The notes beneath the pieces are model-generated. The model did no database searches. It worked only from the letters and a program-made list of their open reading frames with translations, and was not told the DNA's origin. A DNA stretch of 64,000 bases from a virus. A program made the translations under genes and the position numbers. Positions 1,049 through 23,630 of the stretch are shown piece after piece. The stretch lies in the IMG/VR virus record IMGVR_UViG_3300027763_000029. The stretch is one strand, 5' to 3'. Positions within the stretch are counted from its first letter, which is position 1. Each line of letters begins with the position of its first letter.

Positions 1049-4000
1049 CTAGTATATTGGCTCAAACTGTATCATTGAGAAGGTATTTGCAAATAGACCT
1101 ATTCCAGGAGAATTTGATCCATAAAGAGATATTCTATTTATCATAGTAGGATAACGATTTAATGTGTCAAAATAGAACTCCCTTGATGTTGTACTAATTG
1201 TTAGTTGAGATTGTGATATATAAAAACCTCCACTAAAAGTATTTACATATATTGACTGGCCACCATTTACTGCATCTTGCCATCCTGTGGTAAGAGGACC
1301 AAAAGCATACTTAAAGCCTCTTATAGGAGTCCAAACAGGGAAAACAACAGATATCTTAAAACCGTCTCTTTCTGTGTGAGTATTTATATATGTATTATAA
1401 TCTTGAGTAGATAAATATCTGTATCTAGTATTGTCATTTAAGAAACTCAATAATGGAGGATATGTTGTTTGGTTGACAACAGATGCTCTAGACATATCTG
1501 GATAGTTCGATTCAACACTGCTCCAACCATATCCGTCTATTATTGGTTGTCCAAAATTATCTAAATAATAGGGGGTGGGGTAGTAGGGCGGGGCTACTCT
1601 GTAGATAGGAACACGAACACCAAAACTAAAACTCTTCTGATAAAAATATTCATTAACAATATAAGGTCTTGGAGTGCGTGTTGGGGTTGATGTTATTGCT
1701 GGCGTTGGCGTGAATGGTGGTGTTGGAGAAACAGATGGTGTTGGATATGGTGTTTGAGATAGAGATGGGGTTGGTGTTGGTACATTTAGATAGTCTACAA
1801 CTAACTCAACAGGCATTGTATTTGATATGTCGTCAAATATTTGTAAAACAACTATACCTCCATTATTACCCACCGAATCATAGTAACCAACAAATAGATT
1901 ATCTTCCAAATTACAAGTATTACAATTCTTCTCAGACGCTATTGCTATAGACGTTACTATTTTACCTGGAATATTTAGATTTATGATATTAACTATTTGA
2001 TCAGAATCTGTATTGATGCATGCTACTTTATTGGTGTCTAATAAAACATATAGTATATTTTTATGGTATTCCATAGCAACTGGTTTTGCATTATCTGCGA
2101 AAGGTACACGATATAAGCTATTAGCAACCCAGTTCTCTACAAAAACTTCTTGAGTATTATTTTGATTGGCGGTCTCTGATAGTACATGAACGCCTGGATT
2201 ATCTCCTATATCAGATATATATACTTTTCCGTTAGTTCTCATATACGAAGAATTATTACCATAGAAATATTTTGCATTATTATTCGGACAAAGAACTTGG
2301 CCTGGTTCACTACCTTCTGGCAACATGCAATACCTATTAGATATAGCATTTGTTCCATATATAAAAATAACTGGTACAAGTTTCCATATTTTTGTAAGAT
2401 CTGGTTGAGCAAAAAATGCTCTTACAAGAGCAGCAACATAAACACATCCCGCGGTTGAACTATAGTCCAAACCCCTAGCATAAGTACCACCAATAGTATT
2501 TCTTATATTAGTTTTGAAAAACTCACTATTAGTAAATGGTCTTTCTGGATCGTTAGAGTAGAAAAAAGATCCATAGTCTATTCTGCAGTCATTACTGGTA
2601 TTATTGCTGGAACAGAAAGCAGATTCTCCTGGTAGCCAATATTGTCGATCCAAACTTAGTCCTACAGTTTTATTATTTGTTCCCATCATTGTTTGTTGAA
2701 GAGCAATTCCTACGTAGCCTGCATTATGATATTGCCCGGTTGGGAATCTGGAGTCTTCTAGATTACTAATATCGAAAGAATTAGAACCGTATGGTGCACT
2801 TATTCCAATGAAATTTGTTCCTTTGTTTTTAGTGTATCCACCAGTTGAAGAAAAAAATGTTGGGTCAGTAGTACCATAAAGTAATCCATATGATGTCGAA
2901 CCAGTTTCGTCAAAAAATTTAGCAGAGGTCAATCTGTGTATTTTCTTTTCCGTTAGTCCATAATAAGAACCTATATATAGACTATTATTTATTCTATATG
3001 CATTATTAAATTTTATTACATCTTTAATTTCACACCTTAATAATCCTCGACCATATTTAGGACTAAAGTTTAAAAGATGATTATCCGGTACACCAACATA
3101 GCTTGAAAGGTGTTTATCGGAAGCTATCGCTTGAACACCACCACTAACATTTATAATTCCTCTTAATGAAAATTGAGTAATATTTATTGGGGTTGGAGAA
3201 GGACTTGGTGTTGGATATGGCGTTGGTGTTTTGGTTGGTGGTAAGGTTGCTACTATTCTGGACGTACCATCTCCTACCGCATTAGCACTTACGCAATATG
3301 GAATATCATCGGTCTGAGTGGCATAAGACCAATAGCCAGCGTCGGTACCTATTGCTTTATAATATGCTGCTTTATACCATTCATTCCAGGTAGGAATATA
3401 ATATTTTGCTGTGGTATTTCTGGATCTATTACCAGATGTTGCACCACTTATACTGTATGCTCCAGTCTCAGTGGTACTATTATTCTGAGGTCCTATTGGT
3501 TTGCTATTATGCAACCAGTTTGCGTATCTTGCAGCACTAAGCCAGCTAACAAAATTAACAGGTTTATTACCATAGTTTGTTTTAGTCGAATATGAGTAGC
3601 TTCCATCGCCTCCTGATCGGTTTATACCTCCTAATGATCCAGACATATTGGTATCGTATACTCCATATAAGTCTGTGATTGCAATAGCATTCAAGAATTG
3701 AACATATTCGCTATTAGTAATCTCATATTTTTGTATCATATATGAATATGGAACGCTTCCTTTTCTGAATCCTGTAGTATCAGGAGCATTATTTGGATCT
3801 CCAACGGACATAAAATTAGAATAATTATTAGGATTAGTTAAAGTTGCTAAACGAAAGCCTATATAAGAACGTCTATCATTAGATCCGGTGCCAGATATTA
3901 AGTTTTTATTATTAATTGAAGTGTCTGAATAATTACCCCCAGTATAACAATATGAGCCAATACTAGGCGATTCATCGATCCATTCATCTATATTACCATC

Positions 4001-7000
4001 CATATCGTAAACGCCATAAGCACTTGGTCCGCCGTTAGTTCCAACAGTAGTTAGATTTCCGCTTGTGCCATTCCAAATAGCACAGCGACTCCAGTTTATA
4101 CTATTAGCTCCAATTATACGCGGAGTTAGTGTTGGAGTTATTGTTGGCGTTGATGCTGGCGTTCGTGTCGGTGTTGAAGTTACGGTAGGCGTAGATGTTA
4201 TAGCTGAAGTTTGTGTCTGAGTTACTGTTGTTGTTGACGTTACTGTTGGTGTTTTTGTTGGAGTTTGAGTTGCTGTTGATGTTCTGGTTGGAGTTGGTGT
4301 TGGCGTTGCAAATGAACCATCTCCAATACTATTAGATATTATCCGATCTGGCTGACTATTGCTCTGTGTAGCATAAGTCCAATATCCCGCATTGGTACTG
4401 CCTCCTTTATAATACGCGGCCTTGTACCATTCATTTTCGGTTGGAATATAATATTTTGCTCCAATTTTTCTTGATACAGTGTCTGTTCGTGCTGTTTTAC
4501 CATTTAAAGCGTATGCTCCATCTTCAGTGGTACTACTATTTTGAAGTCCAGATGGTTTACCATTATGCAACCAATTGCAGTAACGAGCAGCATCAAACCA
4601 ATTCACATAGTTTACCGGCTTGTTGCCGTAATTATTTTTTACAGTATAAGAAAAGCTTCCACTAGCTCCTGATTGGATTATCCCTCCTGGAGTACTAGCA
4701 TAACCCATCAGATAAAAATACAATTGATATGTATCAGTTGCAGCAATAGCATTTAAAAATTCAGCATACTCACTATTAGTAATTTCATATTTACCTATAT
4801 GATACTCATATGCTACTGCTCCCCTACCAATACTTCCATACGTATTCAAAGTATCAGCAAGATTATTAGCGTCTCCAACGACTACAAAATTAGAATAATT
4901 ATAAGGATTATTAGAGCTTGAGATACGAAAACCATACTGACTGGTCTTTGAAACTGGATTATCGAATCCTCCTCCGTAAGATGATGTGAAAGGAATAGTA
5001 ATATTAAATGCTCCACCCCTTATCTGCTTATCGGCATATGTATTGGTGCCGTCATAATCGTTCCATTCTTGAACATTGCCGTCCATATCATAAGTGCCAT
5101 AAGCGCTTGGTCCACCATTGCTTCCAACCGAAGATACATTTCCATTTTTATTATCCCAAACTACATAATTGTTGTAGTTAGCAGTATTAGCACCAAAAAT
5201 ACGCGATGTTGGTGTTGGCGTAGGTGTTTTTGTTTGACTAATTGTTGGCGTTATAGTGGGTGTTATAGCAGGTGTCTGAGTCGTTGTTGGAGTTACTGTA
5301 TTGGTTGGTGTTAATGTCACTGTTGGGGTGATCGTTGATGTTTTTGTAGCTGTTATAGTAGCTGTTTGTGTGGCTGTGACTGTTGGGGTTATTGTTGATG
5401 TTACTGTTGAAGTAAGGGTTGGAGTAACCGTTAATGTTCGAGTAATGGTTTTTGTTATTGTCTGAGTGTTTGTGGGAGTTGTCGTAGAGGTAATTGTTGG
5501 CGTTATCGTTGAAGTAAGAGTGGGAGTAGAGGTTAATGTTGGAGTAGTAGTTTTTGTTATCGTAGGAGTGGTTGTTGGTGTTATTGTTTGGGTTCTTGTT
5601 GGACTAATAGTATTAGTTTGGGTTATGGTTGTAGTAACTGTGGATGTAATGGTTGGAGTAACAGTTTGAGTGAGAGTTGGAGTTGGACTAATTGGAGTAG
5701 CTGTGATAGTTGACGTAACGGTTGGAGTAACTGTCTGAGTGGACGTTGGTGTTGGGCTAATTGGAGTAGCTGTAACAGTTGGAGTAACAGTTGGAGTGAG
5801 GGTTCTAGTTGCTGTTGATGTTACTGTGTTAGTTGGAGTTACGGTTGTTGTTGCTGTTCTTGTTACTGTTGGAGTAAATGTTGGACTCACAGTATTGGTG
5901 GGCGTTATTGTTGATGTTATAGACGGAGTAACAGTTGAAGTAGGCGTTAGTGATTGAGTAACAGTTTGAGTTACCGTTGAGGTTGTTGTAACAGTTGGAG
6001 TTGCTGTTGATGTTACTGTGTTAGTTGGAGTTACGGTTGATGTTGCTGTTATTGTTACTGTTGGAGTAAATGTTGGACTCACAGTATTGGTGGGCGTTAT
6101 TGTTGATGTTATAGATGGAGTAACAGTTGAGGTAGCGGTTAGTGATTGAGTAACCGTTTGGGTTACTGTTGATGTTACTGTAGTAGTTGGAGTTACGGTT
6201 GATGTTACTGTGTTAGTTGGGGTTACTGTTAATGTTGGCGTTATTGTTGATGTTACTGTATTGGTTGGAGTTAATGTCGGAGTTACTGTGTTAGTCGGAG
6301 TTAATGTGGGAGTTTCTTTGTTAGTTGGTGTTATTGTTGTAGTTGCCGTAACTGTTGGCGTTATTGTGGAAGTTGCTGTATTAGTTGGTGTTATTGAGTT
6401 TGTTGGCGTAAAAGTTGGAGTTATCGTTGGAGTAACCGTTGAACTGACCGTTACTGTTGGCGTAATTGTTGGAGTTACTGTCGGAGTTTTAGTAGCCGCA
6501 GGAGTTGATGTTGAAGTTGGTGTTCTTGTTGGAGTTGTTGTATTGGTTGGTGTGGGGGTTGGACTTGCTAATGGACCATAACCTATATTATTTACATTTA
6601 TCCCATATGGAGCACTATTACTCTGAGTAGCATACTGCCAATAGCCAGCGTCGGTACCTCCTCCTTTATAGTAAGCTGCTTTAAACCATTCATTTTTAGT
6701 TGGTATACAGTATTTTGCTCCAACTTTTCTCGTTGTACTAGTTCCACTACCTATTCCATTTAGAGCATAAGCTCCATCTTCAGTGGTGCTGCTATCTTGA
6801 ATTCCATTTGGTTTGTTGTTGTGCAACCAGTTTGCATAGCGAGCAGTATCAAACCAACTAACATAATTAACGGGTTTATTTTCATAATTATTTTTAGTTG
6901 AATAAGTATAACTGCCACTAATTCCTGATCGCAATATGCCTCCACCAGCAGCTGCCATATTAATATCATATAGTCCATATGTATCAGTTGTTGCAACTGC

Positions 7001-10000
7001 GTTCAAAAATTCAGCATATTCACTATTTGTTACTTCGTATTTCTGTATATAATATTGATATGAAACAGTTCCATTGTTAGTATAAATATCTGGACTATTA
7101 TTAATGTCTTCAATACTCAAAAAATTTGAATAATTATAGGGATTACTCAAACTTGTTAAACGAAAACCTATATATTGTTGGCTATTTGCTGGATTTTCTG
7201 ATATAGTAGTTTGATTATTTGCTGATAAAATATTAATAAAATCACCACCAAGTATTGTACGAAGATAGGTATTAAAAATACCTTCGCTCCATTCCTGAAC
7301 ATTTCCGTTCATATCATAAGCCCCATAAGCGCTGGGACCACCGTTACTTCCAACAGTAGTTACGTTTCCATTTCTACCATCCCAAACTGCTGAGTTATAT
7401 GTATTAGCAGTATTAGCTCCTATAATACGTGGAGTTGGTGTTGGTGTTGAAGTTAATGTTGGAGTAATTGTTGCTGTTTTGGTAATCGTTGGTGTTAGTG
7501 TTGAAGTTGCTGTAATGGTTGGTGTTGCTGTTGACGTTAATGTTTTTGTTGGCGTAACCGTTGATGTTAATGTTTTTGTTGGCGTAACCGTTGATGTTAA
7601 TGTATTCGTTGGAGTAAAGGTTGGACTTATGGTATTGGTTGGTGTTATTGTGGGAGTTAATGTAGATGTTGATGTTACTGTGGGAGTAATTGTAGAAGTA
7701 GGGGTTGGTGTTGATGTTGATCCAACTGTTGGTGTTACTGTTGTAGTCGCCGTTATTGTTGGAGTAACCGTTTCAGTTGGCGTTACTGTTGGAGTAACAG
7801 TTTCAGTTGGTGTTACTGTTGGAGTAGCAGTCAATGTTTTAGTGACTGTTACTGTAACTGTTGGGGTTACTGTAGCTGTTGGGCTTTCTGTAATTGTTGG
7901 AGTTACCGTAGAGGTTACGGTTGGAGTAGGAGTTTCTGTTTCTGTAATAGTAGGAGTAGGAGTTACCGTTGAAGTTGCCGTAACTGTTGGGGTAGCAGTT
8001 TGGCTTTCCGTAATAGTAGGAGTTAGTGTTGGTGTTACTGTTGGAGTAGCAGTCAATGTTTCAGTGACTGTTACTGTAACTGTTGGGGTTACTGTTGTAG
8101 TCGCCGTTATTGTTGGAGTAACCGTTTCAGTTGGCGTTACTGTTGGAGTAGGAGTTTCTGTTTCTGTAATAGTAGGAGTAGGAGTTACCGTTGAAGTTGC
8201 CGTAACTGTTGGGGTAGCAGTTTGGCTTTCCGTAATAGTAGGAGTTAGTGTTGGTGTGACTGTAGATGTAGCAGTAACGGTTGGTGTCACTGTAGTTGTT
8301 GGACTTGGCGTTAATGTTTGTGTCTTAGTGGTGGTAATAGTTGGTGTTGGAGTTAAGGTCTGTGTTCTAGTAACAGTTGGGGTTAGTGTATACATATCTC
8401 CAATATTAAAAGCAAATCCACTACTCTCATCTCCGGCATTTCTAGTTCCATAATCAGCAGAAACAGATATTTTTGATCCTTGGGTTGTCGTAAATTTCCA
8501 ATTAACGCTCTCATAAGTCCAGCTTCCAAAACCATTTAAATCTCCCTCATTATATCCTCCGATATCTTGTCCAGAACTAAACTGAGATCCATTAGAGGAA
8601 CTCAAAACTCCGCTTGGATTATATAGTGTTCCGCTACCACTAAAATCTGAAAATACTAAGGATCCAGCCGGATAAGTTCCATTACTAAGATCAGGATCAA
8701 TAGAAGTTCGGTTTCCTGGTCCTATGTTCCTCTCATTACCAGCACCAAATATCTGAAGTCCTTGTAAATTAAATATAGAAGAAAATTCAGGATCAATAGA
8801 ACCAGAAACAGTATAGGAAAATCTACTAAATCCATACCTTGTTGTGTCATAGCCAGGAGTAGACATCTTCATAACCACAGATAATCCAATATTAGGATAT
8901 CTTGGATTCTGTAAGTTAGATACTTCAAGAGTAATATCTTGGGCCGGAGTTGGTTGTCCAGCTTTGATATCAACAATATTCCAATCTAAATCGTTTAAAA
9001 ACCATGAGCCAATTCTTCTTCCTTTATGTACAATCAAACCGTCAGCAGAATTTGTAGAAACCGAAGAAACCGTATAAAGAATTCCATTAGTAGCACAATC
9101 TGATCCATTGCCAGATAAACTAGCACAAATAGGCTCCGGAACAATATCACTCTGAGTAGCATACAGCCAGTATCCAGCATCTGTTCCTGACACCTTGTAA
9201 TATGCTGCTTTGTACCATTCGTCTTCTGTTGGAAGATTATATCTTGCATTTGGATTTAAATCAATGAAATCTCCATCAGTAGCACCAAAAAGAGAGTATG
9301 CTCCATCTTCTGTGGTGGTCTCGTCTTGAATTCCACTTGGCTTACCGTTATGTAGCCAATTGCAGTATCTTGCAGCGTCAAACCAATTTGTCCAAATAAC
9401 CGGCTTATTTCCATAGTTTGATATTGTGATACTTGATGCATGTTCCGCATGGAGTCTGGTGGTTCTTTCAGCGTATGAATAATTCCCGGACGTTCCGGTT
9501 CTTGTTATTCCACCAACAGCATAATTATTACTTGGATATGACACACCCATATTAGTATTATATACTGAATAAGTATCATCTGATGCTATAGCATTTAAAA
9601 ACTCAATATACTCATCGTTGGTGGTTTCGTATTTTTTAATCTTATAGTCATAATTTACTGATCCAAATCCTGTCAAATCTGCAAGATTACCAGAGCTATT
9701 AACGTCCACAAAATCATTAAATAAATAGGGATTAGATTTACTAGCAACACGAAATCCTGTATTTCCACTATCATAATTAGGATGAACTAGAGCTCCACGA
9801 TATAATGAATTTATAGTACTAGCATTACTAGACCAATTAGCTCCTCCAGATTTTATTGAAGAATCATTTTTCCATTCTAATGTATTACCACTCATATCAA
9901 AAACGCCATAAGCACTAGCTCCACCAGCACTACCAACGGTAATAACGTTTCCATTTCTATCATCCCAATTAGCACATCTATTAAAATTAGCAGTATTTGA

Positions 10001-12310
10001 GCCTTTTATATATGGTAAAGGAATATTATTTGGACCACATAGATCTCTAAAGCCAACCCCAAGAGGGTTTTCGGGAGTAATACTTGTTACTAAATCAACT
10101 GTAGTTAATTGTCCCGTGATTAAAGATATGGTATACCATTGCCCGGTTTCAAATGATGAAGTATAAAGTATAGAATTGGTGCAATCAAAAGAATTTTGTA
10201 GTCTAACACCCATTGAGCTTTTGATTATATTGAAAGAAGACCTCGGATTATTAATGTCTAATGAATAAAAATATCCAGTATTCACATTTGCATAAAGTAT
10301 TCCAGTATCTTGATTAATAGAAATATCACCAAAAGTATTATCGGCACCAATACTTATATTAGTATTTATTGCCTCTATTGAGAGTATGGTAGGAATTTCT
10401 GATGAATAATCAAAACGAACTCTGATTAGGGTTGTTCTATCGTAATAAGAAACACTAGTAGCACCCATAAAAAAGAATACTGAGTCATCATAGTAACAAG
10501 CGCCAGATGGACCCACTGTCATACCTAATGATCCAAGAGTGCTTACATTGCCTAAAGATACAAATTTATTATCCAAATTCCAAAAGTATAGTTCTCCAGT
10601 ATTACCTGGCTTGAACATGAATAAATGTTTTCTTATTGGATCAAAAGACATAGAATTAGCAGAAGTAAAACCGGTATCAAATACTGGAATATAAGTTCTA
10701 TCTGCTGTATTTATCTGCCATATAATACCATTATTATCTACTCCATATAAAAATGATAGTAGTTCTTCGTATTCAATAACATAATTAGTAATTGGTAAAC
10801 CGCCAGTAAAACTTGGAGCATCCCAAGATAATGCTAATTCGTGGGTGGCTGAAGTTGCTGTTAAATGAATAGGAGCGTCTGGAATTACTGCTGGTGTTGG
10901 GGTAACTGTGGCTGTTGGAGTTAGTGTGCATGAAGCAGTCTGGCTAATAGTTTGCGTTATTGTGCAAGTATTGGTGGGTGTTAAGGTACAAGTTTCTGTT
11001 GGAGTATTTGTATTTGTTGGAGTGACTGATGCTGTCGGAGTAAGCGTACAACTATTAGTAGGAGTAAAAGTGGGAGTATTGCTTTGAGTAAGAGTTGGTG
11101 TAACTGTAGAACTTTTAGTTATAGTGGGTGTTACTGTAGAGGTTTCACTAACGGTTGGAGTTAATGTAGAGGTTGGAGTAATGGTTGGAGTTATTGTTAG
11201 TGTGGCTGTAGATGTTGGAGTAACAGTTAATGTTTCTGTGGGTGTTTTAGTGACCGTTACTGTTAATGTTGGTGTTACAGTAGACGTGGGGCTTATAGTT
11301 GGAGTTAATGTTTGTGTTAATGTGGGTGTTGGTGTGTTTGTTGAAGTTACTGTTGGGGTAACTGTTTTAGTTGGAGTTAGAGTAGCAGTTGGTGTGCAAA
11401 GATTATCTTGGTTATAATAACAATATGGTCCACTTCTATTTGAAGATAATGAGACACAAACTGGATCTTCATTGTACTGCGTAGCATATTTCCAATATCC
11501 GCTATTTCTTCCGTTACCTTTATAGTAAGCAGCCTTAATCCATTCATCTACAGTTGGTATCCAATACTTAGCACTATCATTCTTAGATATTATGCCATTA
11601 CTAGCGCCATATAAAGAATACGAACCATCTTCTGTTGTGCTATTATTTTGAGATCCAGATGGCTTATTATTATGAAGCCAGTTACAATATCTAGCGGCAC
11701 TATACCAACTGATATAGTTAACAGGCTTATTACCAAAATCTCCAACAGAATATACATAAAGTCCATTATCTATAGTTCTTTGTATTCCCCCATAAGTTCC
11801 AGCCATATTAGTACTATATAAATAGTATGTGTCCGATGCGCTGGCAACAGAGTTTAAAAAGACCGAATATTCATAATTAGTTATAGCATATTTGCTTATT
11901 AGATAAAAATAACCTATGCTTCCTAAACCTTCGTTATCTGGAGAATTTTCAATATCGTTTATCTCAACAAAATTATTAACACTATCTAAATTTGAACATA
12001 CTCTGAATCCAAGCGTTGATGATATTGATGATGGGGTTGAATATGGTCTATTTTTTAGATTAGCTAATGATGAGGTATAATTACCTCCAATATACGTCTT
12101 ATTAAAGTAAGATACTGTTGTATCTGTCCATTCATCAATATTTCCATTTTGGTCATAAGTGCCATAATAGCTTGGACCACCATTAGTTCCGACCGTGCTT
12201 ACATATCCTCCACAATTATTGAAGTTAGCATTATTAAATCCTCTATCGGGATTAATTACTATTGCGTTGGATATATAATTATTATCGGTCATTTTACAGT
12301 ATCTCTCCAT
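1049..12310 (-). CDS. Giant (~3750 aa) adhesin-like virion protein: 5 permuted FGE-sulfatase/CLec-fold domains, Thr/Pro linkers, partial Fn3, beta-propeller-like regions
   Basis: Five copies of GGPSxYGxYDxxGNxxEW...GFR...KYExTNxEYxxFLN...KPVxxxxWxxAARYxNWLHN...PTxxEWxKAAYYK, separated by long TPT repeats. The true start may be ATG 12292, which has GGAGA upstream. Confidence 0.85.
5809..6170. repeat. Imperfect direct duplication, period 192 bp, inside a Thr/Pro stalk
   Basis: The block beginning gctgttgatgttactgtgttagttggagttacgg occurs at 5811 and 6003. Confidence 0.75.
7920..8257. repeat. 116-bp direct repeat (7920-8035 and 8142-8257) inside a Thr/Pro stalk
   Basis: The two copies are identical by eye; period 222 bp. 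Confidence 0.85.
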
Positions 12311-12368: not shown

Positions 12369-15300
12369 TCATATAAATGGCCCAATATCGGTATACGATA
12401 CAAGATAGTCATCGTATCCTCCTCCTCCAACGATTAATTTACTTCCATTTGAAATCAATCCAAATCTGGGAGCTATTGTACTTATACTTTTTGCTATAAC
12501 TCCAACATTTCCATTAGAGATAGAGTCTGTAATATCAATCGATATTAATTTATTAGTTGAATTATTTACTGATGAATTATAAAGATTCATATATGCTCTA
12601 TCATAAATAGTATTAACATGTATTCCAGCAGCGATAAATTCGCATCCAACAGGTAGTGTAATAGTATTACTAATAGTATCGGTAGCTGTATTTATTATGA
12701 CCAATCCTGATTGACCCATACTATAATTTGGCATTGGAATAAATAGTCTATTATTAGTATCTAAAAACATATTTGAATGACTAATTAAGCTAGGATAATT
12801 GAATAAACCAGTTGGCAGATTAATAAATTTAGTTATAGTATTAGAGTTTATATCGTAAACATATACTACTCCATCTCCTAAAATATATAGCTTCAATCCG
12901 AATTTGACTATATTTCTAGCAGATACTCCTAGATTTAAACTAGCTGACTCAGTTAGCGGAGTATTAAAAAATGCAGATACATCATAGGACTTAATAAATC
13001 CTCCAACACTAGCATATAATTTACTAGAATTGCTATCATATTTGATAAAATCAAAAGTTCCCAAACCTGAAAAAGAGGTAGTATAATTTGAATATGATGT
13101 TGAACTACCAATACAATGAATAATAAAATTATCTTTAGCAATAAATACGGATCCATTCGTTCCGACAGTTATAGGACATGAAATCCCGGTTCCTAATCCA
13201 ATTGATCTTATGCTGAATATGTTTGATGATACATCCAGACAAAATAATACTCCTCCTGTTGCTCCGGCTAATCCATGTACTCTGTTGGAATTTCCTTCAA
13301 AAACAAGAGATTGAATACCATATCCTGGAAAGTATGCATATGGTGCCACCTGAGTAAAAACCGTTTGTGTTGATGTTGGTGTTGCTGTTAATGTTGGTGT
13401 TGGTGTCTTTGTGGGAGTGATTGTTGAGGTTATTGTTGAAGTAATGGTTGGGGTAATGGTTGGAGTTAGAGTTAAAGTTTTTGTGGGAGTAATTGTACTA
13501 GTTATAGTTGGTGTAACTGTTAACGATGGAGTTAATGTTTGAGTTACTGTTGGTGTCGGGGTTGGAGCAACCGTTATGGTGTTCCAATCACTAACCGAAA
13601 TACCGGTACCATAATTCAAAAGTCTAATTCTCCAAGAGACAATACCATTAGAGTGACCACGAATAAGTGGAATTGCATAACTAATAGGATTATAGTCAAA
13701 TAGTTTCCATTTGATATTGTCAGTTGAAAACTCTAATATATAGTATCCATATCCATCTGTTCTTCGGTCCATATTCGTTATTGTTATGCTATTAGCTGTT
13801 ATATTAGTTATTGATGGTGGGATAAGATTTTCTGGATTAATATAAGTATGAGTATTTGACCAAGGACTAACAATATCTGGAGTAATACTTTTCCAGCATT
13901 TTACTCTCCATATTTTTGATTCAGAATACGTAATATAAGATGTGTTATTGCTGTTAGATGAAACTGTTCCATTTCCTTCTAATATCCAATTAGATCCTCC
14001 ATCCGAAGAAGAGTTTAGTTCAAAAGCTACCTGAAAATCATTGACATTAAATATAACAGCAAACGAGGAAGTACTTACAGATACCAGTGTAGGAACTAAT
14101 GGAAGAGGAGTTGTAGTAGGAGTCGGAGTTGTTGTACTAGTAGCAGTTATCGTTGGAGTTTGAGTTACTGCTGGTGTTCTGGTTGGAGTTGGAGTTGGAG
14201 TTGCTAATGGTCCGTATCCTATACTGTTGGAGCTAATACAGGTAGGGGCCGTATCACTTTGGGTGGCGTATTTCCAATAACCAGAATTAGTTCCATCACC
14301 CTTGTAGTAAGCGGCCTTATACCATTCATTAAAATTGGGAATAAAATATTTTGCTATAGTATTTCTTGATATATTTCCAGAAATTGCGCCACTTAGATTG
14401 TATGCTCCATCCTCAGTAGTACTACTATCTTGAAGTCCAGTTGGTTTATTGTTGTGCAACCAATTGCAATATCTCGCGGTACTGAGCCAACTAACAAGAT
14501 TAATCGGCTTATCATCATAATTTGTTTTAGTTGAGTAGGAATAGCTACCGTTAGTTCCTGATCTTATTATACCTCCTCTACTTATACCCATATTTGCGTA
14601 ATACAGCTCGTACGTATCTGTTGTAGCTACAGCATTCAAAAAATCCCTATATTCATTATTAGTTACTGGATATTTTTGAATCATATATGTATATGAGACA
14701 TTTCCTTTTCTGGAAGGTTTAGTATTAGACTGATTATTAGGATCTCCAACGGATACAAAATTAGAATAATTATTAGGATTAGTTAAAGTTGCTAGACGAA
14801 AACCTATATAATCGCCGAGGCCCCACGAGGCACGCCCATATATTCCTACATCATCGCCGAACTCTGACAAAGAGCTTAAATAGCTACCACCCACATAATT
14901 GTAAGAGCCAACGCCAGGTACATCATCAATCCATTCAAAAACATTACCGTTCATATCATAAGTTCCATAAGCACTTGGTCCACCATTAGTGCCAACAGTA
15001 GTAACATTACCATCTATGCTATCCCAATCAGCACAATAGTTAAAATTAGCAGTATTAGCTCCTGCCGGCAGAGCATATCTAACTGGAGTAGAAGTTGGGG
15101 GTGGGGTTCTTGTTGGAGTAACTGTTAAAGTTGATGTTACTGTTGGTGTTAATGTCTTTGTGGGAGTTCTTGTTGGAGTAATTGTTGAAGTGACCGTTAT
15201 CGTTGGGGTTATTGTTGGAGTTTTTGTTATTGCTGGTGTGTTGGTGGGCGTTACTGTTGGTGTTGGTGTTGGCGATGGAATCATTCCATCTCCTGAAATA

Positions 15301-18300
15301 TCAGCACTAACACAAACTGGATCACTATCATTCTGAGTAGCATATCTCCAGTAGCCAGAATTAACTCCATATCCTTTATAATAAGCAGCTTTGTACCACT
15401 CATTTTCAGTGGGTATATGGTATTTTGCGCCGACTTTTCTAGATACAGCGTTTCCATTAAAAAGTCCATTTAATGAATAAGCACCATCTTCGGTGGTACT
15501 ATTATTTTGAATTCCACTTGGCTTACCATTATGGAGCCAATTGCAATATCTTGCGGCATCAAACCAACTAATCCAATTAACGGGCTTATTTCCATGATTT
15601 ACTTTAACGGAGTATGAGTAACTTCCGCTACTTCCTGACTGTACTATGCCTCCCACTTGACCAATACCATTAGATCCCATATTAGGATGATATAGATTAT
15701 ACGTGTCGGTTATTGCTATAGAATTTAAGAATTCAGTATACTCACTATTAGTCACTGCATACTTTCCTATATTATATATGTATGAAACAGCGCCTTTGGT
15801 GGTATAAGTATCGTTAGCGTTATTAATATCTCCAACAGTAACAAAGTTTGAAAGACCTAAAGGATTAAGCGTAGAATAAGACGAAGCAACTCTAAAGCCG
15901 AAGCTATTACTAACATCACTAGGAATATGACTCCTATTATTTCCTGCTCCAATATAACTTATTGTAAACTCATTAAAAGCACCACCTCTTAATTGACGAT
16001 AAACGCCTTGACTCAATGCTCCTGGGCCACCAACACCATTCAAATCATTCCACTCAAAGATATTTCCGCTTTGATCATATGTTCCGTAAGCGCTTGGTCC
16101 ACCATTACTTCCAACAGTAGTAAGATCTCCGTCATTACCTCCCCAATCAGCACAATTACTAAAATTAGCAGAATTACTTCCAATACTAAAAATAAAAGAT
16201 GATACAGATAAAGCTCTGGTGCTAAAAGAGAAGGTTTCTGGGTCTCTAGCCAACATCATAAAACGGCCATTGTTTAAATAAACTATCTTGGTATAATAAG
16301 TTTGACCACCGTACCCACCCCAGCCAAGAGGTAAATCATTTTTTATTCTCCAATTAATACCATCAATACTTACTCCATAACGATTTTCTCCAGTAATGCC
16401 ATATCCAGCAAATATGAAAGTATGATCTCCATATGCTATGGAACTAGATGCTGGTGCAGAACTGTCTAGGCTAGCATTAGTCCAATTTATAGTGTCATAG
16501 CTATATTTTACTGAAGCACTATTAAATATCGAATCAGATACTGCAATCCATTTTGACTCTCCATAAGTTATGGACATACCACCAATTCCATTAATATTTC
16601 TTTTAGTCCAATTTAACCCATCGGAACTAAAAAGAACACAATCTCCATTTCCAACATAATATCCTCCAGGAACAATAGCTTTATTCGACGGACTAACCAC
16701 AAAGGTATTATTAAGAAAACTAATCCTTGAATAACCAGCATAATAAGTATTAAAGTAGCTGCTAGTTGGAGAGGGTAATGTTCTTGCTGTCCAGTTTATT
16801 CCGTCTGTACTAGTAATATAAAGATGTGGCGATAATGCTGGATATGTTAAGTTTTCAACTACCTGAGTACTATGAGAGGCAACAGCAACAAACATTCCAT
16901 TACCATAGGCTATCGATTGCCAAAAACCATAAGGAATGGTTCCAACTTCCCAGGAGTATCCTTTATCATAGCTATAATAATATTTATTACTTGGTAGCAC
17001 AGAAGCATTATAATCTCTACTAGTCTTTCTTGCTGAAGGCAAAATTATAAGCATACCAGATATAGGATTATATGTTATGGATGAAATTCCAGAATAATAT
17101 GATGGTCCCGAATTAGATCCTGGTAATGACGATAAATCTGGCCCGAGAATCCATCCGTTTTGATTATCTATATTATCGTTTAGATATATAGATCCACCGT
17201 TAGTCAGTATAATGGCAGGAAATCCTTTACCAACTGTGATATAATCACTACCAAGTATCGCAATATCAATAGGACTAGAAACACTACCAAGTCCTAAGTC
17301 ATTTATAGAAACATCAAGACTTTGATTCGTAGTAGAACGCTGAGTAATAAATACTTGTTGGGTTGGAGTAACCGTTGGTGTCGGAGTTTTAGTTGCCGTA
17401 GCTGTTATGGTTTTTGTTATTGTTGGCGTTGGTGTTACTGTGGGGGTTTTTGTTGGAGTTACCGTTAAGGTACTTGTATTAGTTGGTGTTTTTGTTGTAG
17501 TTGCTGTTAATGTATTTGTAGGGGTAGGTGATGGGTCAGGACTTGGACAATGATATGTAAAATTCTGTGTAGTATATCTTGCAATCCCCTTAGTCACTCT
17601 AAGCTCGTCAATATAACAAGTGTTGCTATTTGGATAGTTTGGAGTAGCCCCTATGCAAACTGGTAAAGTATTAGATAAAAGTGTTGGGATTGACGCGAGC
17701 CCGACCTCTGAACCATTAATATATGCTCTAATTTGCCCAGCGGCCCTTGAAAATGCTACGTGGGTCCACTGATTTAATGGAACAGCTGTTGTCCCGAATG
17801 ATGTAGAAGCTGATCCGTTCCAGAAATTCAAAATACCGTTATTTCTAACTGAAAAGCTAAAATTTGTTGATATTCCAGTCGTTGTAAATAGCTGAGTATC
17901 ATAAGTTCCATAAGCAATAATTTTAATCCACGCTTCTACAGTAAAGTCTCCTGAGCCAAAACCAAAAAGAGTACTATTTGCTGGTATTTGTAAATAGTCT
18001 CCTACTCCATCTATATACAAACTACTATTATTAAATCTATAGTCATCAGTTGATATTTTAGCATCTCCAACATAAGAAATAGTATTTGTACTAGAATTTG
18101 AACTACTATCAGTAAATACTTGTGAATTATTAGATCCATTAAAGTGTAATAATAATGAAACATTGTTGCTAAATGTATCGGCACTACCAACAGGACAGGT
18201 CGATGGAGTTAATGTCGGGGTTAATGTTTTTGTTGGAGTAACAGTTGGCGTCAATGTTTTAGTTGGAGTAACAGTTGGCGTCAATGTTTTAGTTGGAGTG

Positions 18301-19688
18301 ACTGTTGGTGTTACTGTGGGAGTTTTTGTTAGTGTTGGTGATACTGTATTTGTTGGTGTTTTTGTTGGAGTTACTGTTGACGTTATTGTTTTTGTTAATG
18401 TTGGAGTTGCTGTTAATGTTGGAGTTAATGTTTTTGTTGGAGTTAGTGTTGGAGTCAATGTTGTTGTTTTAGTAACTGTTGCACTAACCGTTGGAGTTAC
18501 TGTTGGAGTTAATGTGCTTGTTGCAGTATTACTTACAGTAACTGTTGGAGTACAAAGATTATCAGGATTATATGAGCAATAAGGACCACTGCCATTAGCA
18601 AAAGCACTAATAAAAGCAGGTGCTACATCACTCTGAGTAGCATATGTCCAATATCCTTCATTAATACCATATCCCTTATAATATCCAGCTTTAATCCACT
18701 CATCTTCTGTTGGTATCCAATATTTTGCCCCATCTTCTTTTGGATAAATTCCATAGTTAGCACCATCCAAAAAATATGCTCCGTCTTCTGTGGTAGATCT
18801 ATCTTGTAATCCAGTATTTGGTTTTCCGTTATGTAACCAGTTGCAGTATCTTGCTGCATTATACCAGCTGATAAAAACTACCGGTTTATTACCCATATAT
18901 GATCTTGATATATAATCATATATTCCATAGCTTGTTGATCTTTGTATTCCTCCTCTAGGATCAGAGGACATTAGGGGATTATAAGCATTATAATAATCAT
19001 ATTTTGCTGTGCTATTTAAAAAATCAACATACTCATCGTTAGTAATTTCATACTTGCTAATAGCATACTTATAGCTAACGCTTCCATATCCATTAGAATC
19101 ATTAGAATTATTGATATCTTCAATAACAACAAATCTATTATTTTCAAAATCACATGAACATGGTCTAAATCCTAACTTATCCGAAATATATGATGGATCA
19201 GCAAGTGTTCTATCTTTAAGAGAAGACGAACTTGTTGTTGACCAGTTTCCACCCCTATAAACTCTCTTAATAGAGTTTCCACTAATAGTATCATTCCATT
19301 CACTAGCATTACCGTCCATATCATAGCAGTCATAATAGCTTGGTCCGCCATTAGTTCCTACCGACGTTGTGTTACCTTGACCAGTAATATTCCAAATTGC
19401 AAAATTATTATAGTTGGCCGTATTGAATCCAGTTATCCTAGCTAATATAATAGGATTATCTGTAGTAGCATCACTAAAAATTAAATAATACCTATCAGGC
19501 TGTAATTTAAGAAGGTTATTAAAGCTTGATCCTGGTACCCAAGAATACATCTCTAGTCCATCATAGGATATTCCTAATACTTTTTTTATCCTAGATTTAA
19601 ATGGAGCATCATCAATAGTTAAACTGGTTAATCCAGTATATTTGACTATTTCCGTTGCCTGGGTGATGATGCAGAGATTGTCTATCAT
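12369..19688 (-). CDS. Giant (2439 aa) adhesin-like virion protein: domain A, 3 permuted FGE domains, LamG, propeller repeats, 2 Fn3-like domains, C-terminal YVTN-like propeller
   Basis: LamG: VSLLLHFNG...GDFTVEAW...WTHVAFSR...YIDELRVTKGIARYT. Propeller-type repeats: SIAYGNG.FVAV and SxDGINW. FGE motifs as in the neighbouring gene. Confidence 0.85.
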   Translation of the reverse strand: MIDNLCIITQATEIVKYTGLTSLTIDDAPFKSRIKKVLGISYDGLEMYSWVPGSSFNNLLKLQPDRYYLIFSDATTDNPIILARITGFNTANYNNFAIWNITGQGNTTSVGTNGGPSYYDCYDMDGNASEWNDTISGNSIKRVYRGGNWSTTSSSSLKDRTLADPSYISDKLGFRPCSCDFENNRFVVIEDINNSNDSNGYGSVSYKYAISKYEITNDEYVDFLNSTAKYDYYNAYNPLMSSDPRGGIQRSTSYGIYDYISRSYMGNKPVVFISWYNAARYCNWLHNGKPNTGLQDRSTTEDGAYFLDGANYGIYPKEDGAKYWIPTEDEWIKAGYYKGYGINEGYWTYATQSDVAPAFISAFANGSGPYCSYNPDNLCTPTVTVSNTATSTLTPTVTPTVSATVTKTTTLTPTLTPTKTLTPTLTATPTLTKTITSTVTPTKTPTNTVSPTLTKTPTVTPTVTPTKTLTPTVTPTKTLTPTVTPTKTLTPTLTPSTCPVGSADTFSNNVSLLLHFNGSNNSQVFTDSSSNSSTNTISYVGDAKISTDDYRFNNSSLYIDGVGDYLQIPANSTLFGFGSGDFTVEAWIKIIAYGTYDTQLFTTTGISTNFSFSVRNNGILNFWNGSASTSFGTTAVPLNQWTHVAFSRAAGQIRAYINGSEVGLASIPTLLSNTLPVCIGATPNYPNSNTCYIDELRVTKGIARYTTQNFTYHCPSPDPSPTPTNTLTATTTKTPTNTSTLTVTPTKTPTVTPTPTITKTITATATKTPTPTVTPTQQVFITQRSTTNQSLDVSINDLGLGSVSSPIDIAILGSDYITVGKGFPAIILTNGGSIYLNDNIDNQNGWILGPDLSSLPGSNSGPSYYSGISSITYNPISGMLIILPSARKTSRDYNASVLPSNKYYYSYDKGYSWEVGTIPYGFWQSIAYGNGMFVAVASHSTQVVENLTYPALSPHLYITSTDGINWTARTLPSPTSSYFNTYYAGYSRISFLNNTFVVSPSNKAIVPGGYYVGNGDCVLFSSDGLNWTKRNINGIGGMSITYGESKWIAVSDSIFNSASVKYSYDTINWTNASLDSSAPASSSIAYGDHTFIFAGYGITGENRYGVSIDGINWRIKNDLPLGWGGYGGQTYYTKIVYLNNGRFMMLARDPETFSFSTRALSVSSFIFSIGSNSANFSNCADWGGNDGDLTTVGSNGGPSAYGTYDQSGNIFEWNDLNGVGGPGALSQGVYRQLRGGAFNEFTISYIGAGNNRSHIPSDVSNSFGFRVASSYSTLNPLGLSNFVTVGDINNANDTYTTKGAVSYIYNIGKYAVTNSEYTEFLNSIAITDTYNLYHPNMGSNGIGQVGGIVQSGSSGSYSYSVKVNHGNKPVNWISWFDAARYCNWLHNGKPSGIQNNSTTEDGAYSLNGLFNGNAVSRKVGAKYHIPTENEWYKAAYYKGYGVNSGYWRYATQNDSDPVCVSADISGDGMIPSPTPTPTVTPTNTPAITKTPTITPTITVTSTITPTRTPTKTLTPTVTSTLTVTPTRTPPPTSTPVRYALPAGANTANFNYCADWDSIDGNVTTVGTNGGPSAYGTYDMNGNVFEWIDDVPGVGSYNYVGGSYLSSLSEFGDDVGIYGRASWGLGDYIGFRLATLTNPNNYSNFVSVGDPNNQSNTKPSRKGNVSYTYMIQKYPVTNNEYRDFLNAVATTDTYELYYANMGISRGGIIRSGTNGSYSYSTKTNYDDKPINLVSWLSTARYCNWLHNNKPTGLQDSSTTEDGAYNLSGAISGNISRNTIAKYFIPNFNEWYKAAYYKGDGTNSGYWKYATQSDTAPTCISSNSIGYGPLATPTPTPTRTPAVTQTPTITATSTTTPTPTTTPLPLVPTLVSVSTSSFAVIFNVNDFQVAFELNSSSDGGSNWILEGNGTVSSNSNNTSYITYSESKIWRVKCWKSITPDIVSPWSNTHTYINPENLIPPSITNITANSITITNMDRRTDGYGYYILEFSTDNIKWKLFDYNPISYAIPLIRGHSNGIVSWRIRLLNYGTGISVSDWNTITVAPTPTPTVTQTLTPSLTVTPTITSTITPTKTLTLTPTITPTITSTITSTITPTKTPTPTLTATPTSTQTVFTQVAPYAYFPGYGIQSLVFEGNSNRVHGLAGATGGVLFCLDVSSNIFSIRSIGLGTGISCPITVGTNGSVFIAKDNFIIHCIGSSTSYSNYTTSFSGLGTFDFIKYDSNSSKLYASVGGFIKSYDVSAFFNTPLTESASLNLGVSARNIVKFGLKLYILGDGVVYVYDINSNTITKFINLPTGLFNYPSLISHSNMFLDTNNRLFIPMPNYSMGQSGLVIINTATDTISNTITLPVGCEFIAAGIHVNTIYDRAYMNLYNSSVNNSTNKLISIDITDSISNGNVGVIAKSISTIAPRFGLISNGSKLIVGGGGYDDYLVSYTDIGPFI

Positions 19689-19782: not shown

Positions 19783-20412
19783 TTATGTTGTTAACCAAAC
19801 CTTTATGCCATCCCAATATGCAGCATCTCTTCTTAGGAGTGTTAGATATTGTCCTTGATCCAAATGAGTAGAATATGATCCAGAACCAGACGATCCTATT
19901 TGAAGTTCCACTACAGGACTACCAACATCGGGCCCAGTATTTTTCCATATTGAAGCTTCTCCATAATTTGGATCTCCATATGCTGATACTGATGTCCATG
20001 ATACATGAATGGTTCCTGAAACTAATGCTGTAACCTTAAGTTGTTCAGTAGTAGTCCATGAATTTTTTGTATAAGCGGTTTCTTCTGATGCTCCGCTACC
20101 ACCAGCATCCCAGGTTCCTGTTAGAGACAAAGATAGTATCATAGTAGGAGGGATCGTCTCCAAGTAAGAATATAGAGTAAAGTTTGGATTGTCTATATTA
20201 CCTATAATTAAGTATTTTTTATTTGTCTCAAAATCAGTTAATGTATTAAATTTTCCATTTGGAGAAAATTCTACTAAATGATCATTATCTTCACTAATTC
20301 CAATTACTTTACTAAGATTATCTAATGCTTCATTTGTTAAATTTGATATCGGCACATTATAACCGGTATACTCTATAAATGAATATTTTTTAGAAATTTT
20401 TACATTTTTCAT
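19783..20412 (-). CDS. Domain A plus small beta-rich domain (virion accessory protein)
   Basis: N-terminus ISKKYSFIEYTG...KVIGISEDND...FNTLTDFETNKKYLII matches the N-termini of neighbouring genes. Confidence 0.75.
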   Translation of the reverse strand: MKNVKISKKYSFIEYTGYNVPISNLTNEALDNLSKVIGISEDNDHLVEFSPNGKFNTLTDFETNKKYLIIGNIDNPNFTLYSYLETIPPTMILSLSLTGTWDAGGSGASEETAYTKNSWTTTEQLKVTALVSGTIHVSWTSVSAYGDPNYGEASIWKNTGPDVGSPVVELQIGSSGSGSYSTHLDQGQYLTLLRRDAAYWDGIKVWLTT

Positions 20413-20424
20413 TTGATCACATTA

Positions 20425-20628
20425 TTATAGAATAACAGTAGTCAATAGCAATTCATTTGATTCTTTATTATATATCTCTATTTTTTCTAAACCCTCTGTA
20501 TTTTCTAATAATTCCATTATTCCTCTAGGATATTTTTTATCATCCAATACAGATAGTATACTATCTAAATTAACTGATGTATTACCATATACATTTACAA
20601 TATATTTTGTTAAAGTTAGTGTTTGCAT
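20425..20628 (-). CDS. Small hypothetical protein (67 aa)
   Basis: Fills the gap in the operon and has AAGGA upstream of the ATG. Confidence 0.65.
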   Translation of the reverse strand: MQTLTLTKYIVNVYGNTSVNLDSILSVLDDKKYPRGIMELLENTEGLEKIEIYNKESNELLLTTVIL

Positions 20629-20642
20629 AATATTTCCTTATT

Positions 20643-23630
20643 TTATGTAGCGTCGTATATTACTATTGATGGGTTGGTATTAGAATATCCACCAAGAGCT
20701 AATCTATTTGATAGATAGATCGTTCCTAATCTTGGAACTCCAACACAGAAATTTTTTGTAAGTATACCTATATCGTCATTATCTATCGAAGCAGCAATAT
20801 CTAATCCTACTAGTCTGTTGGATGAATTACTAGTACTAGAATTGTTACAATTGATATAGGCTATGTCATGAGCAACGTCAACAGCAATATTAGCTTGAAT
20901 AAAGTTAATACCCACAGGCAACGATATTGTATTGCTTATAGTATTATTAGAGGTATTAATTACTAGTAAACAGGCTTGACCATTTCCAAAACTTGGTAAT
21001 GGAATATATAGTTTATGGTTTGTATTATCTAGGAAAGAGTTAGAAGAGCTAATATTGGTAATACTTCCAAATTCCGCTGGTAAAGTTATCGAAGTTACTT
21101 CGGTATTTCCATCAGTATCTATAACAATTATTGAGGTATCAGTAATCAAATATAGCCTATCATCCGTTGAATTGACTAATATATTTTTGACATTAGTACC
21201 AACAGCTAAAGTTAAGCTAGATATTTCAGTAAGAGAAGTAGAGGTAGATGTACTATAGGTCTTTAACATACCTCCTATAATACCATATAAACGATTAGAT
21301 GAACTATCGTACTTAATAAAACCAAAAGATCCAAGAGAACCAGATATACTAATAACAGAATTAAGATTATCTAAATCATAAACACCTATTTTATTATTTG
21401 ATCCAAGATAGATTCTTTCATCTTCACCAATTGTCATTGGACATGTTGCTATTGTCATAGAACTATTTTGTAAATGAAGAGCATCTAGAACATCTAAACT
21501 AGATGAATATGAGTCAAACTTATATATAGATTGAAAAGAAGTATCATAATCAACTAAACAGTAAATAAAATTACTATTACCTCCAACTCCTATATCTGTA
21601 AATTTATGACGACGATATAGACTTTGTAAGTTCTTATATGCCAAAGTAGGAAATACTACCTGAGTCGCTGTTGGCGTTACTGTTGAAGTTGGAGTAACAG
21701 TTGGAGTTTCTGTAATGCTAGGAGTTACTGTTGGACTTAATGTTAATGTAGGAGTCGGTGTTGTTGTTTCTGTAGGTGTTGGAGTTAAGGTCGTGGTTTC
21801 TGTAACAGTTATGGTTAAAGTCGGAGTTGCTGTTGTACTAGGCGTTAATGTTGGAGTTTCTGTTGGGGTGAGAGTTGGAGTTAGAGTATTTGTTGGAGTT
21901 AGCGTTGGTGTTAGTGTTTCTGTTGGCGTTAGAGTTGGAGTTAAAGTCTCTGTTACTGTTGGAGTTACAGTATTTGTTGGAGTTGCCGTTACTGTTGGAG
22001 TAAGAGTTTCGGTTGGTGTTATGGTTTGAGTTGGTGTTATAGTTTGAGTTAGCGTAACAGTTGGCGTAGGAGTTTGAGTTAGCGTAGGGCTTATTGTTAA
22101 GGTTGGTGTTACTGTAACAGTTGATGATATTGTTTGTGTTGGCGTAGCCGTTGGTGAATTTGTAATTACTGGAGTTCTAGTAAGTGTTGGAGTATTAGTA
22201 GGACTTACTGTTATTGTTGGAGTACAAACATTATCGGCATTGTAAGCACAATACGGACCACTACCACAAGATCCAGCACTAATCGATACTGGAGTACTAT
22301 TACTCTGAGTTGCATAATTGAAATAGCTTGGATTTTTATAGTATGCTGCCTTAACCCACTCATCTTCTGTTGGAATCCAATATTTAGCGCCATTATTTTT
22401 TGGTATGATTCCTTGATTTGCTCCATATATATCGTATGCACCAGTTTCTGTGCTGTTGGCAGTTGGTGCTCCTGATACTATTTTGCCGTTATGGAGCCAG
22501 TTAGCGTATCTTGCGGCATTATACCAGCTGACATAAACAACTGGTTTATTTCCCATACATGGCTTACTATAGTAAGAATACGAACCATTAGATCCAGTTC
22601 TGATTATTCCGGCTCTAATATCATTAATTGTAGCAGTATCGTATAGTCCATAAGTATCTACTACTGCCGTAGCATTTAAAAAATCAACATACTGATCATT
22701 TGTTACAGTATATTTTTGTATCATATACTGATATGGTACAGACCCATATCCTGTAACAGCATCTGGTTCATTGTCCTCGTCTAATATCGGGATAAAAAAA
22801 TTATAATTTGAAGGATTTGACCAAGAAGCTAATCTAAATCCTAAAGTATTCAAAGATCCAGAAGGAGAGTATATTGTTCGAGCACTTTTAGCTAAACTGG
22901 AAGATGATGAAGACCAATTTCCTCCTCTAAAGCTTCTGGAAAAATTATTAAGAATATTATCAGTCCACTCATCAACATTTCCATTCATATCATAACAACC
23001 GTAATGGCTAGCACCACCATTAGTTCCAACAACGGTTACATTGCCTGTTTGAGCATTCCATCCTCCAGTATTGTTGTAATTAACAGCATTAAAACCAGCC
23101 ATAACCGGTGGTTTTTCCCATAGAACGAAAGGAGTACCATTAGTAATGATCAAATACATTTTATTAGGAGATAGATAGGTTAAAGTATTAAACTGACTAT
23201 CTTTAGTCCATGAAATAAAAGAAGAACCATTACTACTAACTCCATAAATTTTTTCTATAAAAGGAAATGTTCTGCTTGTAATATTTAAATTTTCTGTATT
23301 CTTATATGTTACTAATGAAATTTTATTTTGTAGTATTATAGAAGATGTTGGTAGAACGTCTGCTGTTACTGGCCCAAAAGAATACTCAGGATATTTTTGT
23401 GAGCTTACTATTATGTAGTTTTTATTTGTTTCTAAACTTGTAAGACTATTAAAAATACCACTAGGTTGATAATAGACATAATGATCTCCGTCTTCACCAA
23501 CTGTAAAAATAGTAGATATTTCTGATTTAACATTATTATCAAGACTATCTAAAGATAGATTATCTCCTAAATATTCTATAAAAGATAGCTGTTTTGTGAT
23601 ATTAATGCTATTACCATTGATCATATTCAT
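20643..23630 (-). CDS. Adhesin-like protein: 2x domain A, permuted FGE domain, Thr/Pro stalk, YVTN-like beta-propeller
   Basis: The C-terminal ~330 aa align with the C-terminus of the 2439-aa protein ([17 protein letters not shown] vs LGTFDFIKYDSNSSKLY; [17 protein letters not shown] vs INTATDTISNTITLPVG). Confidence 0.85.

Follow-up and report, generated by a model that had tools for sequence, protein, structure and literature searches.

For the most extreme targeted diversification of proteins known, that by diversity-generating retroelements (DGRs), phages and bacteria rely on the FGE-type C-lectin fold as scaffold. In two of the variable proteins that have this fold, Mtd and TvpA, the published variable regions (residues 337-381 and 285-329, respectively) each lie just before the invariant last strand. 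The N- and C-terminal strands of the FGE-type fold pair with each other (PMC6328139), so circular permutation should be easy in it, and natural circular permutants form by duplication and truncation (review PMC3320104). No permuted FGE-sulfatase or C-lectin domain was found described in the limited set of literature covered here, which included the 2026 CIRPIN permutation survey, and neither Pfam nor NCBIfam holds a model for a permuted form. Here we analyse a virus-derived stretch of 64,000 nucleotides (IMG/VR record IMGVR_UViG_3300027763_000029; the window, hereafter) in which three proteins, named P0001, P0002 and P0003, carry nine FGE-sulfatase domains (heads 1 to 9) whose two halves stand in reversed order. 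The window corresponds in reverse complement to bases 1-63964 of a 151,782-bp record, rated 100% complete by CheckV.

An original prediction, made from the letters alone, had placed nine such copies in this region. The copies located by the motif anchors YDMxGN, GFR and YATQ (five in P0001, three in P0002 and one in P0003, all of them within three intact minus-strand open reading frames, ORFs) agree with its coordinates within ~40 nt. Membership of the family is clear from whole-protein scans with PF03781, which gave E-values of 8e-76 for P0001, 2.6e-49 for P0002 and 1.3e-22 for P0003, the scores being 255.5, 168.6 and 81.2 bits where the cut-off is 23.3. A genome-wide scan added a tenth permuted copy, found in an ORF of 886 amino acids (aa) just past the window start (contig 64931-67591). 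Pairwise identity among the ten copies is 46-64%. The first heads of the three proteins (1, 6 and 9) form a subtype with 54-57% mutual identity and are followed by a two-cysteine knob, GPYCxYNxDNxCTPT, which the internal heads do not have; among these internal heads the closest pairs are 3/4, 5/8 and 4/7 (60-64%).

The two halves of the domain are swapped

Each copy was cut after the GFR motif and the two halves were scanned separately against PF03781. All nine N-halves (~93 aa) match positions ~148-254 of the model and all nine C-halves (~178 aa) match positions ~16-133, the C-halves scoring 34.8-53.6 bits (9/9 above the cut-off of 23.3) and the N-halves reaching at least 23.3 bits in six of nine cases, with 21.1-22.9 bits in the rest. 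The tenth copy shows the same reversed order, and none of the ten gave a collinear match to PF03781, that is, one with the KYEVT/PTE.EW part before GNVWEW..GFR. When the nine-copy profile was compared with PDB sequences, query positions 148-262 corresponded to residues 44-165 of CarF (5aoh) and positions 31-91 to its residues 199-262, and the C-terminal residues 184-292 of TvpA aligned to query 3-92. The NPxNYSNF-type joint between the halves is conserved in most copies. These copies are circularly permuted FGE-sulfatase domains, and the swapped order claimed in the original prediction is upheld by split PF03781 matches in reversed order in nine of nine copies, with no collinear full-length alignment in any of the ten.

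Structure prediction, which had been proposed as a check, gave one compact domain. AlphaFold2 (AF2), supplied with the nine window copies alone, reached a predicted local distance difference test score (pLDDT) of 31.5; with 61 single-domain relatives added, making 70 sequences, head 9 was modelled as one compact domain with a mean pLDDT of 89 and a predicted template modelling score (pTM) of 0.90, the stretch between the EW and GFR motifs (EW..GFR) having values of 87-95. Foldseek returned no match in the PDB at E <= 0.001, as expected for a permutant, and the matches it did list were only half-length and all from the same family (CarF, TvpA, FGE, pFGE, PorK, CalU17 and Mtd). With VIA-align, residues ~97-270 of the model fall on the N-terminal parts of human FGE (86-250), CarF (2-176) and TvpA (53-223), and residues 1-100 on the C-terminal parts of human FGE (252-374), CalU17 (178-307), Mtd (266-375) and PorK (327-454). 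Per half, these alignments have Z-scores of 3.5-6.4 and root-mean-square deviations of 1.8-4.6 Å over 79-144 residues, with FGE-family chains only, so that the two halves superpose on opposite halves of solved FGE-family structures. The domain is predicted from this model to have the FGE-type C-lectin fold, with the cut of the circular permutation near human FGE residue 250. In a normal domain the first beta strand pairs with the last. In the permuted one the old C-terminus (the GFR strand) runs into the old N-terminus (the FVxVGD strand) through an NPxNYSNF-type hairpin of 8-12 residues, and the chain is opened in the loop that normally joins ...YATQS to GxNxAN....

Tandem arrays of normal-order domains are common in bacteria, and a permuted query aligns collinearly across their repeat boundaries too; the apparent permutation might on that account be a mere phasing artefact of such repeats. 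We regard this as extremely improbable. Single-copy proteins begin with the N-half, and extra flanking halves were sought and not found: P0003 contains a single N-piece, then a single C-piece, and no further half, and single units of N-half then C-half (NC, the normal order being CN) are present in 91 proteins among the fetched relatives and in 76 ORFs of the viral loci that were read. The NC unit is flanked by linkers, with Pro/Thr-rich ones on both sides at heads 3, 4, 5 and 8, its N-to-C joint measures 0-9 aa against a C-to-N spacing of hundreds of residues, and it makes up one domain in the AF2 model. The permuted unit is an autonomous domain, as attested by its single copies, its linkers and its one compact predicted fold. 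The statement that tandem repetition cannot explain the order holds well for this present-day unit, in view of the single-copy P0003 and of the 91 proteins and 76 ORFs; it does not hold for the origin, which probably did involve tandem duplication (see below).

The variable stretch, retroelements and catalysis

Column entropy among the nine copies is 2.2 bits in EW..GFR, against 1.0-1.4 bits in the other three segments, and this stretch is the top contiguous entropy window (1 of 233; z = 6.7 versus shuffled columns). The variability is not evenly spread, and it peaks where the original prediction had located it. EW..GFR ranges in length from 38 to 50 aa among the copies and sits at residues ~47-87 of the 270-residue domain, with ~180 residues after it. 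It is also the most variable part elsewhere in the family, with 2.77 bits among 137 other permuted relatives and 2.44 bits among 95 bacterial ones of normal order; the concentration of variability there is a property of the whole family, not of this panel. Residues 266-375 of Mtd align to model residues 5-93 and, together with the alignment of TvpA 184-292 to query 3-92 already mentioned, this identifies EW..GFR as the counterpart of the variable region with which Mtd and TvpA bind their ligands, an equivalence that had been proposed from the sequence and is supported by both alignments.

Fold and position of the variable stretch agree with those of DGR variable proteins, which could mean that the stretch is, or recently was, diversified by such an element. 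We give next to no credence to this explanation. No RVT_1 match, and hence no reverse transcriptase (RT), was found in the complete 151,782-bp record, in a search where control genomes gave matches, and no RT was found in 38 related viral records either, 12 of them at least 90% complete. A blastn comparison of the nine variable stretches with the genome produced only chance matches of <=25 nt, and no template repeat. Besides, the copies differ by insertions and deletions (indels; 38-50 aa), which are not a product of adenine mutagenesis, and the stretch is internal and not at the C-terminal end of the domain. The panel had been called fixed, and this fits well with the absence of both RT and template repeat.

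Another alternative is that the domains are enzymes of the FGE/EgtB/PvdO type, i.e., oxidases with a substrate in the host or the virion, and not binding modules. Pfam does place them under FGE-sulfatase, and there are weak NCBIfam matches to EgtB, PvdO and SenA. However, the NCBIfam matches (EgtB, GldK, PvdO, GldJ and SenA) are only fragmentary and far below the cut-offs. The catalytic cysteine pair of FGE is situated in the C-terminal subdomain, at a position known from the human enzyme. Nine of the ten copies have no cysteine in EW..GFR and the tenth has one, so the FGE catalytic pair is absent; likewise, 90 of 102 other permuted relatives have none there, and no conserved cysteine pair is seen where the catalytic cysteines of FGE sit. 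EW..GFR is also the least conserved part of the domain and variable in length, unlike an active site. On these grounds an enzymatic role appears very unlikely.

Distribution and origin of the permuted order

In a profile search over 1.84 billion cluster representatives, 30,702 matched at E <= 1e-3; with the threshold at E <= 1e-30 the number was 3,639, both orders counted. Full-length collinear matches were rejected as a count of permuted proteins, since tandem normal-order arrays also align collinearly to the permuted query, and half-profiles applied separately were used to call the order. Of the 270 proteins fetched, 91 had the architecture NC, 41 CN, 62 CNCN and 27 NCNC. The CN proteins are of ~340 aa, with a signal peptide, often a PEP-CTERM anchor and a constant C-to-N joint of 18-19 aa. 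The NC proteins have no signal peptide and often carry Pro/Thr linkers or the N-terminal adaptor of P0002.

At least 267 stretches of viral contigs in IMG/VR encode the domain, and at least 583 were confirmed in species-representative bacterial genomes, mostly from Verrucomicrobiota and Planctomycetota. Locus architectures were read in the best ~80 loci of each collection. The viral loci were NC (76) or NCNC (6), the exceptions being arrays cut by the locus edge or a second frame (see below), and the bacterial ones were CN (73), CNCN (7) or CNCNCN (2). The permuted order is confined to virus-like DNA in these sampled loci. Two long metagenome contigs with NC genes are viral-looking and mostly composed of ORFans, and an ESM Atlas search retrieved only normal-order Verrucomicrobiota/Planctomycetota clusters, aligned to the C-half. 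A tblastn search against 50,697 GenBank phages gave no match, and there is therefore no cultured relative or annotated function to borrow. Median GC content is 0.36 in the NC viral loci and 0.61 in the CN bacterial loci, the value of the genome itself being 0.336; no host was indicated by this comparison. The other complete relatives, of 150-160 kb, have one head each, which makes the ten heads found here unusual. Normal-order domains also stand in line, both in tandem arrays and within long proteins of bacteria, where linkers or other domains separate them; permutation is therefore not needed for in-line display, and the suggestion that it allows such display on stalks is not supported.

A tree was made with the re-ordered, concatenated halves of 150 units. 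On its 150 leaves the distinction between NC and CN takes 2 changes, compared with a shuffled mean of 50, and 74 of the 80 NC units fall in one clade. When NC was held on one side of a branch the likelihood was higher by 81 units (p-AU, the value of the approximately unbiased test, 0.93). A quick free maximum-likelihood search had given two NC groups, but two origins were discarded when the constrained search found a better tree. All this is compatible with a single origin of the permuted form.

As for the route, bacterial tandem arrays with N-to-C joints of 4-13 aa exist (P0122, P0071, P0066 and P0064). A second permutation frame was also observed in two viral loci, L057:2896-3975 (IMGVR_UViG_3300016467_000949) and L050:2761-5004 (3300029349_000001). 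The unit of this frame opens within the C-half, ~36 aa from its end (YW[IL]PSxxEWYKAAFYK), and the order is C-half tail, intact normal C-to-N joint, N-half, NPLxL joint, C-half up to ~150 and Pro/Thr linker. Tandem duplication followed by truncation is probably how the permutation originated, because both the bacterial tandem arrays and the second cut point fit this route. The permuted form would have arisen once, by trimming of both ends of a tandem normal-order array like those of surface proteins in bacteria of the PVC (Planctomycetes-Verrucomicrobia-Chlamydiae) type, and may then have spread in low-GC uncultured large phages.

Gene neighbourhood, proposed role and known systems

Table 1. 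Window coordinates of the head-bearing genes, the heads and the modules shared within the gene block.
Feature	Coordinates	Strand	Remarks
P0001, 3753 aa	1049..12310	-	heads at aa 16-282, 768-1057, 1629-1900, 2371-2653, 2732-3003
Head 1 (P0001)	11465..12265	-	variable stretch ~11993-12136
Head 2 (P0001)	9140..10009	-	variable stretch ~9740-9880
Head 3 (P0001)	6611..7426	-	Pro/Thr linker each side; variable stretch ~7151-7297
Head 4 (P0001)	4352..5200	-	Pro/Thr linker each side; variable stretch ~4916-5071
Head 5 (P0001)	3302..4117	-	Pro/Thr linker each side; variable stretch ~3842-3988
P0002, 2439 aa	12369..19688	-	~85-aa N-terminal adaptor; heads at aa 86-356, 1168-1456, 1541-1814
Head 6 (P0002)	18621..19433	-	adjoins adaptor module; variable stretch ~19155-19304
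Head 7 (P0002)	15321..16187	-	longest variable stretch, 50 aa, ~15882-16058
Head 8 (P0002)	14247..15068	-	Pro/Thr linker each side; variable stretch ~14787-14939
P0003, 995 aa	20643..23630	-	two adaptor modules, head at aa 177-446, 191-aa Pro/Thr linker, C-terminal region
Head 9 (P0003)	22293..23102	-	sole copy in P0003; sequence modelled; variable stretch ~22824-22973
~80-aa module	19434-19688		P0002
~80-aa module	23121-23336, 23403-23624		P0003 (twice)
~80-aa module	20185-20397		209-aa ORF
~80-aa module	26925-27407		333-aa ORF (twice)
~80-aa module	103-261		659-aa ORF running off window start
Shared C-terminal region, 38% identity	12423-13181 (P0002), 20688-21446 (P0003)		weak YncE-like beta-propeller match

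The genome is that of a phage, with pieces of a PolIII-alpha-like polymerase, a DnaB-like helicase, a ribonucleotide reductase and glycosyltransferases, and the minus strand carries nearly all genes between 1 and 59.7 kb of the window. In the vicinity of the three genes (Table 1), a 1305-aa protein matches virion-structural and baseplate-wedge PHROGs, a 153-aa one has a weak tail-tube match, and there are several Laminin_G_3 proteins. The three proteins and their neighbours matched no tail-fibre family among the PHROGs; they matched families of unknown function, linker-type ones and a 'kinase' family corresponding to a fragment of the FGE domain. An N-terminal module of ~80 aa is common to five genes of the block, with 29-39% identity. 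Attachment domains of fibres are usually shared in such a manner, as an N-terminal module across genes, and from its sequence the module is a candidate common docking domain.

P0001 has no signal peptide and consists to 29% of Pro/Thr-rich linker, and P0002 contains a Laminin_G_3 domain at aa 560-698. The same P0002 has, at aa ~783-1165 (window 16194-17360), repeated SxDGxNW-type motifs (STDGINW, SSDGLNW, YDTINW and SIDGINW) that resemble Asp-box/BNR propeller repeats, with no Pfam match at E <= 0.01. Regarding the C-terminal region shared by P0002 and P0003, one relative (L164) has a single head and a YncE-like protein as separate genes (4808-5731 and 6456-7403) with a 203-aa gene between them, which suggests fusion or fission of the head and YncE-like modules. 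Two phage glycosyltransferases are encoded outside the window (L160:8609-10273 and L162:16900-18180), one with an E-value of 1.4e-174 to phrog_24687. With structural proteins made up to 16-29% of Pro/Thr linker, glycosylation of the stalks is conceivable from the gene content. Also outside the window, the PolIII-alpha-like polymerase is split on the minus strand into ORFs of 606 aa (contig 95296-97116, L160:13296-15116) and 542 aa (contig 92807-94435, L160:10807-12435) that match phrog_405 positions 56-615 and 622-1059, with a 231-aa ORF between them. A tRNA search over the remainder of the genome found none. Positions 63965-64000, the final 36 bases of the window, are not N and do not match the record's other end, so the source of the window runs past the IMG/VR record on that side.

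The explanation that we favour, and consider likely, is that the permuted domains constitute a virus-borne clade of single origin, that the ten heads are non-enzymatic ligand-binding modules and that their diversity is encoded in the germline without a DGR. Pro/Thr-rich linkers would connect ten diverged paralogous heads within four giant proteins encoded by a tail/fibre gene module, and the heads would bind ligands, most likely glycans, with a specificity set by the 38-50-residue EW..GFR stretch. Diversity would have accumulated by gene and domain duplication plus substitutions and indels. The virion location is one that we infer, as are ligand binding and the duplication-truncation route.

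It is also conceivable, although in our opinion unlikely, that the heads do not serve in recognition of a host receptor but tether the virion to polymers or particles in the environment or to mucus-like matrices, or else function away from the virion. Classic tail-fibre tips are trimeric and unlike the long flexible Pro/Thr linkers and beads-on-a-string layout seen here, TvpA and TaqVP are monomers (PMC6328139), and a similar tethering has been proposed for immunoglobulin-like capsid decorations. PHROG tail-fibre families went unmatched, and the complete 150-160-kb relatives manage with one head, so the extra nine may be accessory. On the other hand, the genes sit in a tail/baseplate-like block and have their N-terminal module in common with neighbouring genes, as happens in fibre attachment domains, and short relatives made of the adaptor and one head (P0127 and P0154) are laid out like receptor-binding proteins.

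Several points weigh against the favoured explanation. Placement on the particle derives from the gene neighbourhood and the shared N-terminal module, the PHROG and Pfam matches of the neighbours are weak, and no close relative has a known ligand. The structural alignments were sequential ones that covered each half on its own. The virus/bacterium and NC/CN splits coincide, and the tree could partly mirror a long separation between viral and cellular lineages. Permuted copies may also occur in bacterial genomes, where the best 80 of at least 583 stretches were examined. Finally, the Verrucomicrobiota/Planctomycetota-type bacteria that have the closest normal-order domains are probably not the hosts, given how far apart the GC contents are (0.36 versus 0.61), and the donor is uncertain.

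Going further, and only as a tentative proposal that we hold with low confidence, these phages might use the permuted fold as a germline repertoire of up to ten specificities per virion, displayed on mucin-like Pro/Thr stalks. It would be a hard-wired alternative to DGRs on the same surface, with the binding stretch removed from the end of the chain, the normal site of DGR homing, and the permuted form made from tandem arrays by truncation at more than one phase.

The permuted domain represents a second topology of the C-lectin scaffold, which is abundant and, in the samples examined, found in virus-like DNA only. Searches that proceed sequentially, whether by profile or by structure, split permuted domains or score them too low, and a dedicated model would improve the annotation of receptor-binding proteins in uncultured phages. 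With its candidate tandem intermediates and two cut points, the family is also a natural case for studying how circular permutants originate, and for studies of glycan binding the ten-head panel supplies one binding surface in several ready versions.

Among known systems, the PEP-CTERM FGE-sulfatase surface proteins of Verrucomicrobiota/Planctomycetota (P0183, P0240 and P0193; PF03781 + PF07589 in the ESM Atlas) share ~45-57% identity per half with the heads, the same motifs and the same most-variable EW..GFR, and their C-half superposes at 1.6-1.7 Å over 163-171 residues. Unlike the heads, they run from C-half through the 18-19-aa joint to N-half, are secreted and cell-anchored, and come from high-GC genomes (median 0.61 versus 0.34 in the phage). 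Mtd (1yu1/1yu4), which is the receptor-binding tip of a Bordetella phage, TvpA (2y3c) from Treponema and TaqVP (5vf4) from Thermus have the same fold subtype, with a variable region equivalent to EW..GFR. In these three, however, the order is normal and the variable region lies at the extreme C-terminus, where an RT mutates it from a template repeat, whereas in the heads it is internal, varies also by indels and has neither RT nor template repeat. SUMF1/FGE (1y1e) and pFGE (1y4j) have fold and Pfam family in common with the heads, which differ in their swapped halves, in the lack of the catalytic cysteine pair and in the hypervariability of the corresponding stretch. Concanavalin A, the standard lectin permutant, likewise has swapped halves and a conserved overall fold, but that fold is a different one. 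The heads described here also resemble the classical permutants in having candidate tandem intermediates as well as alternative cut points.

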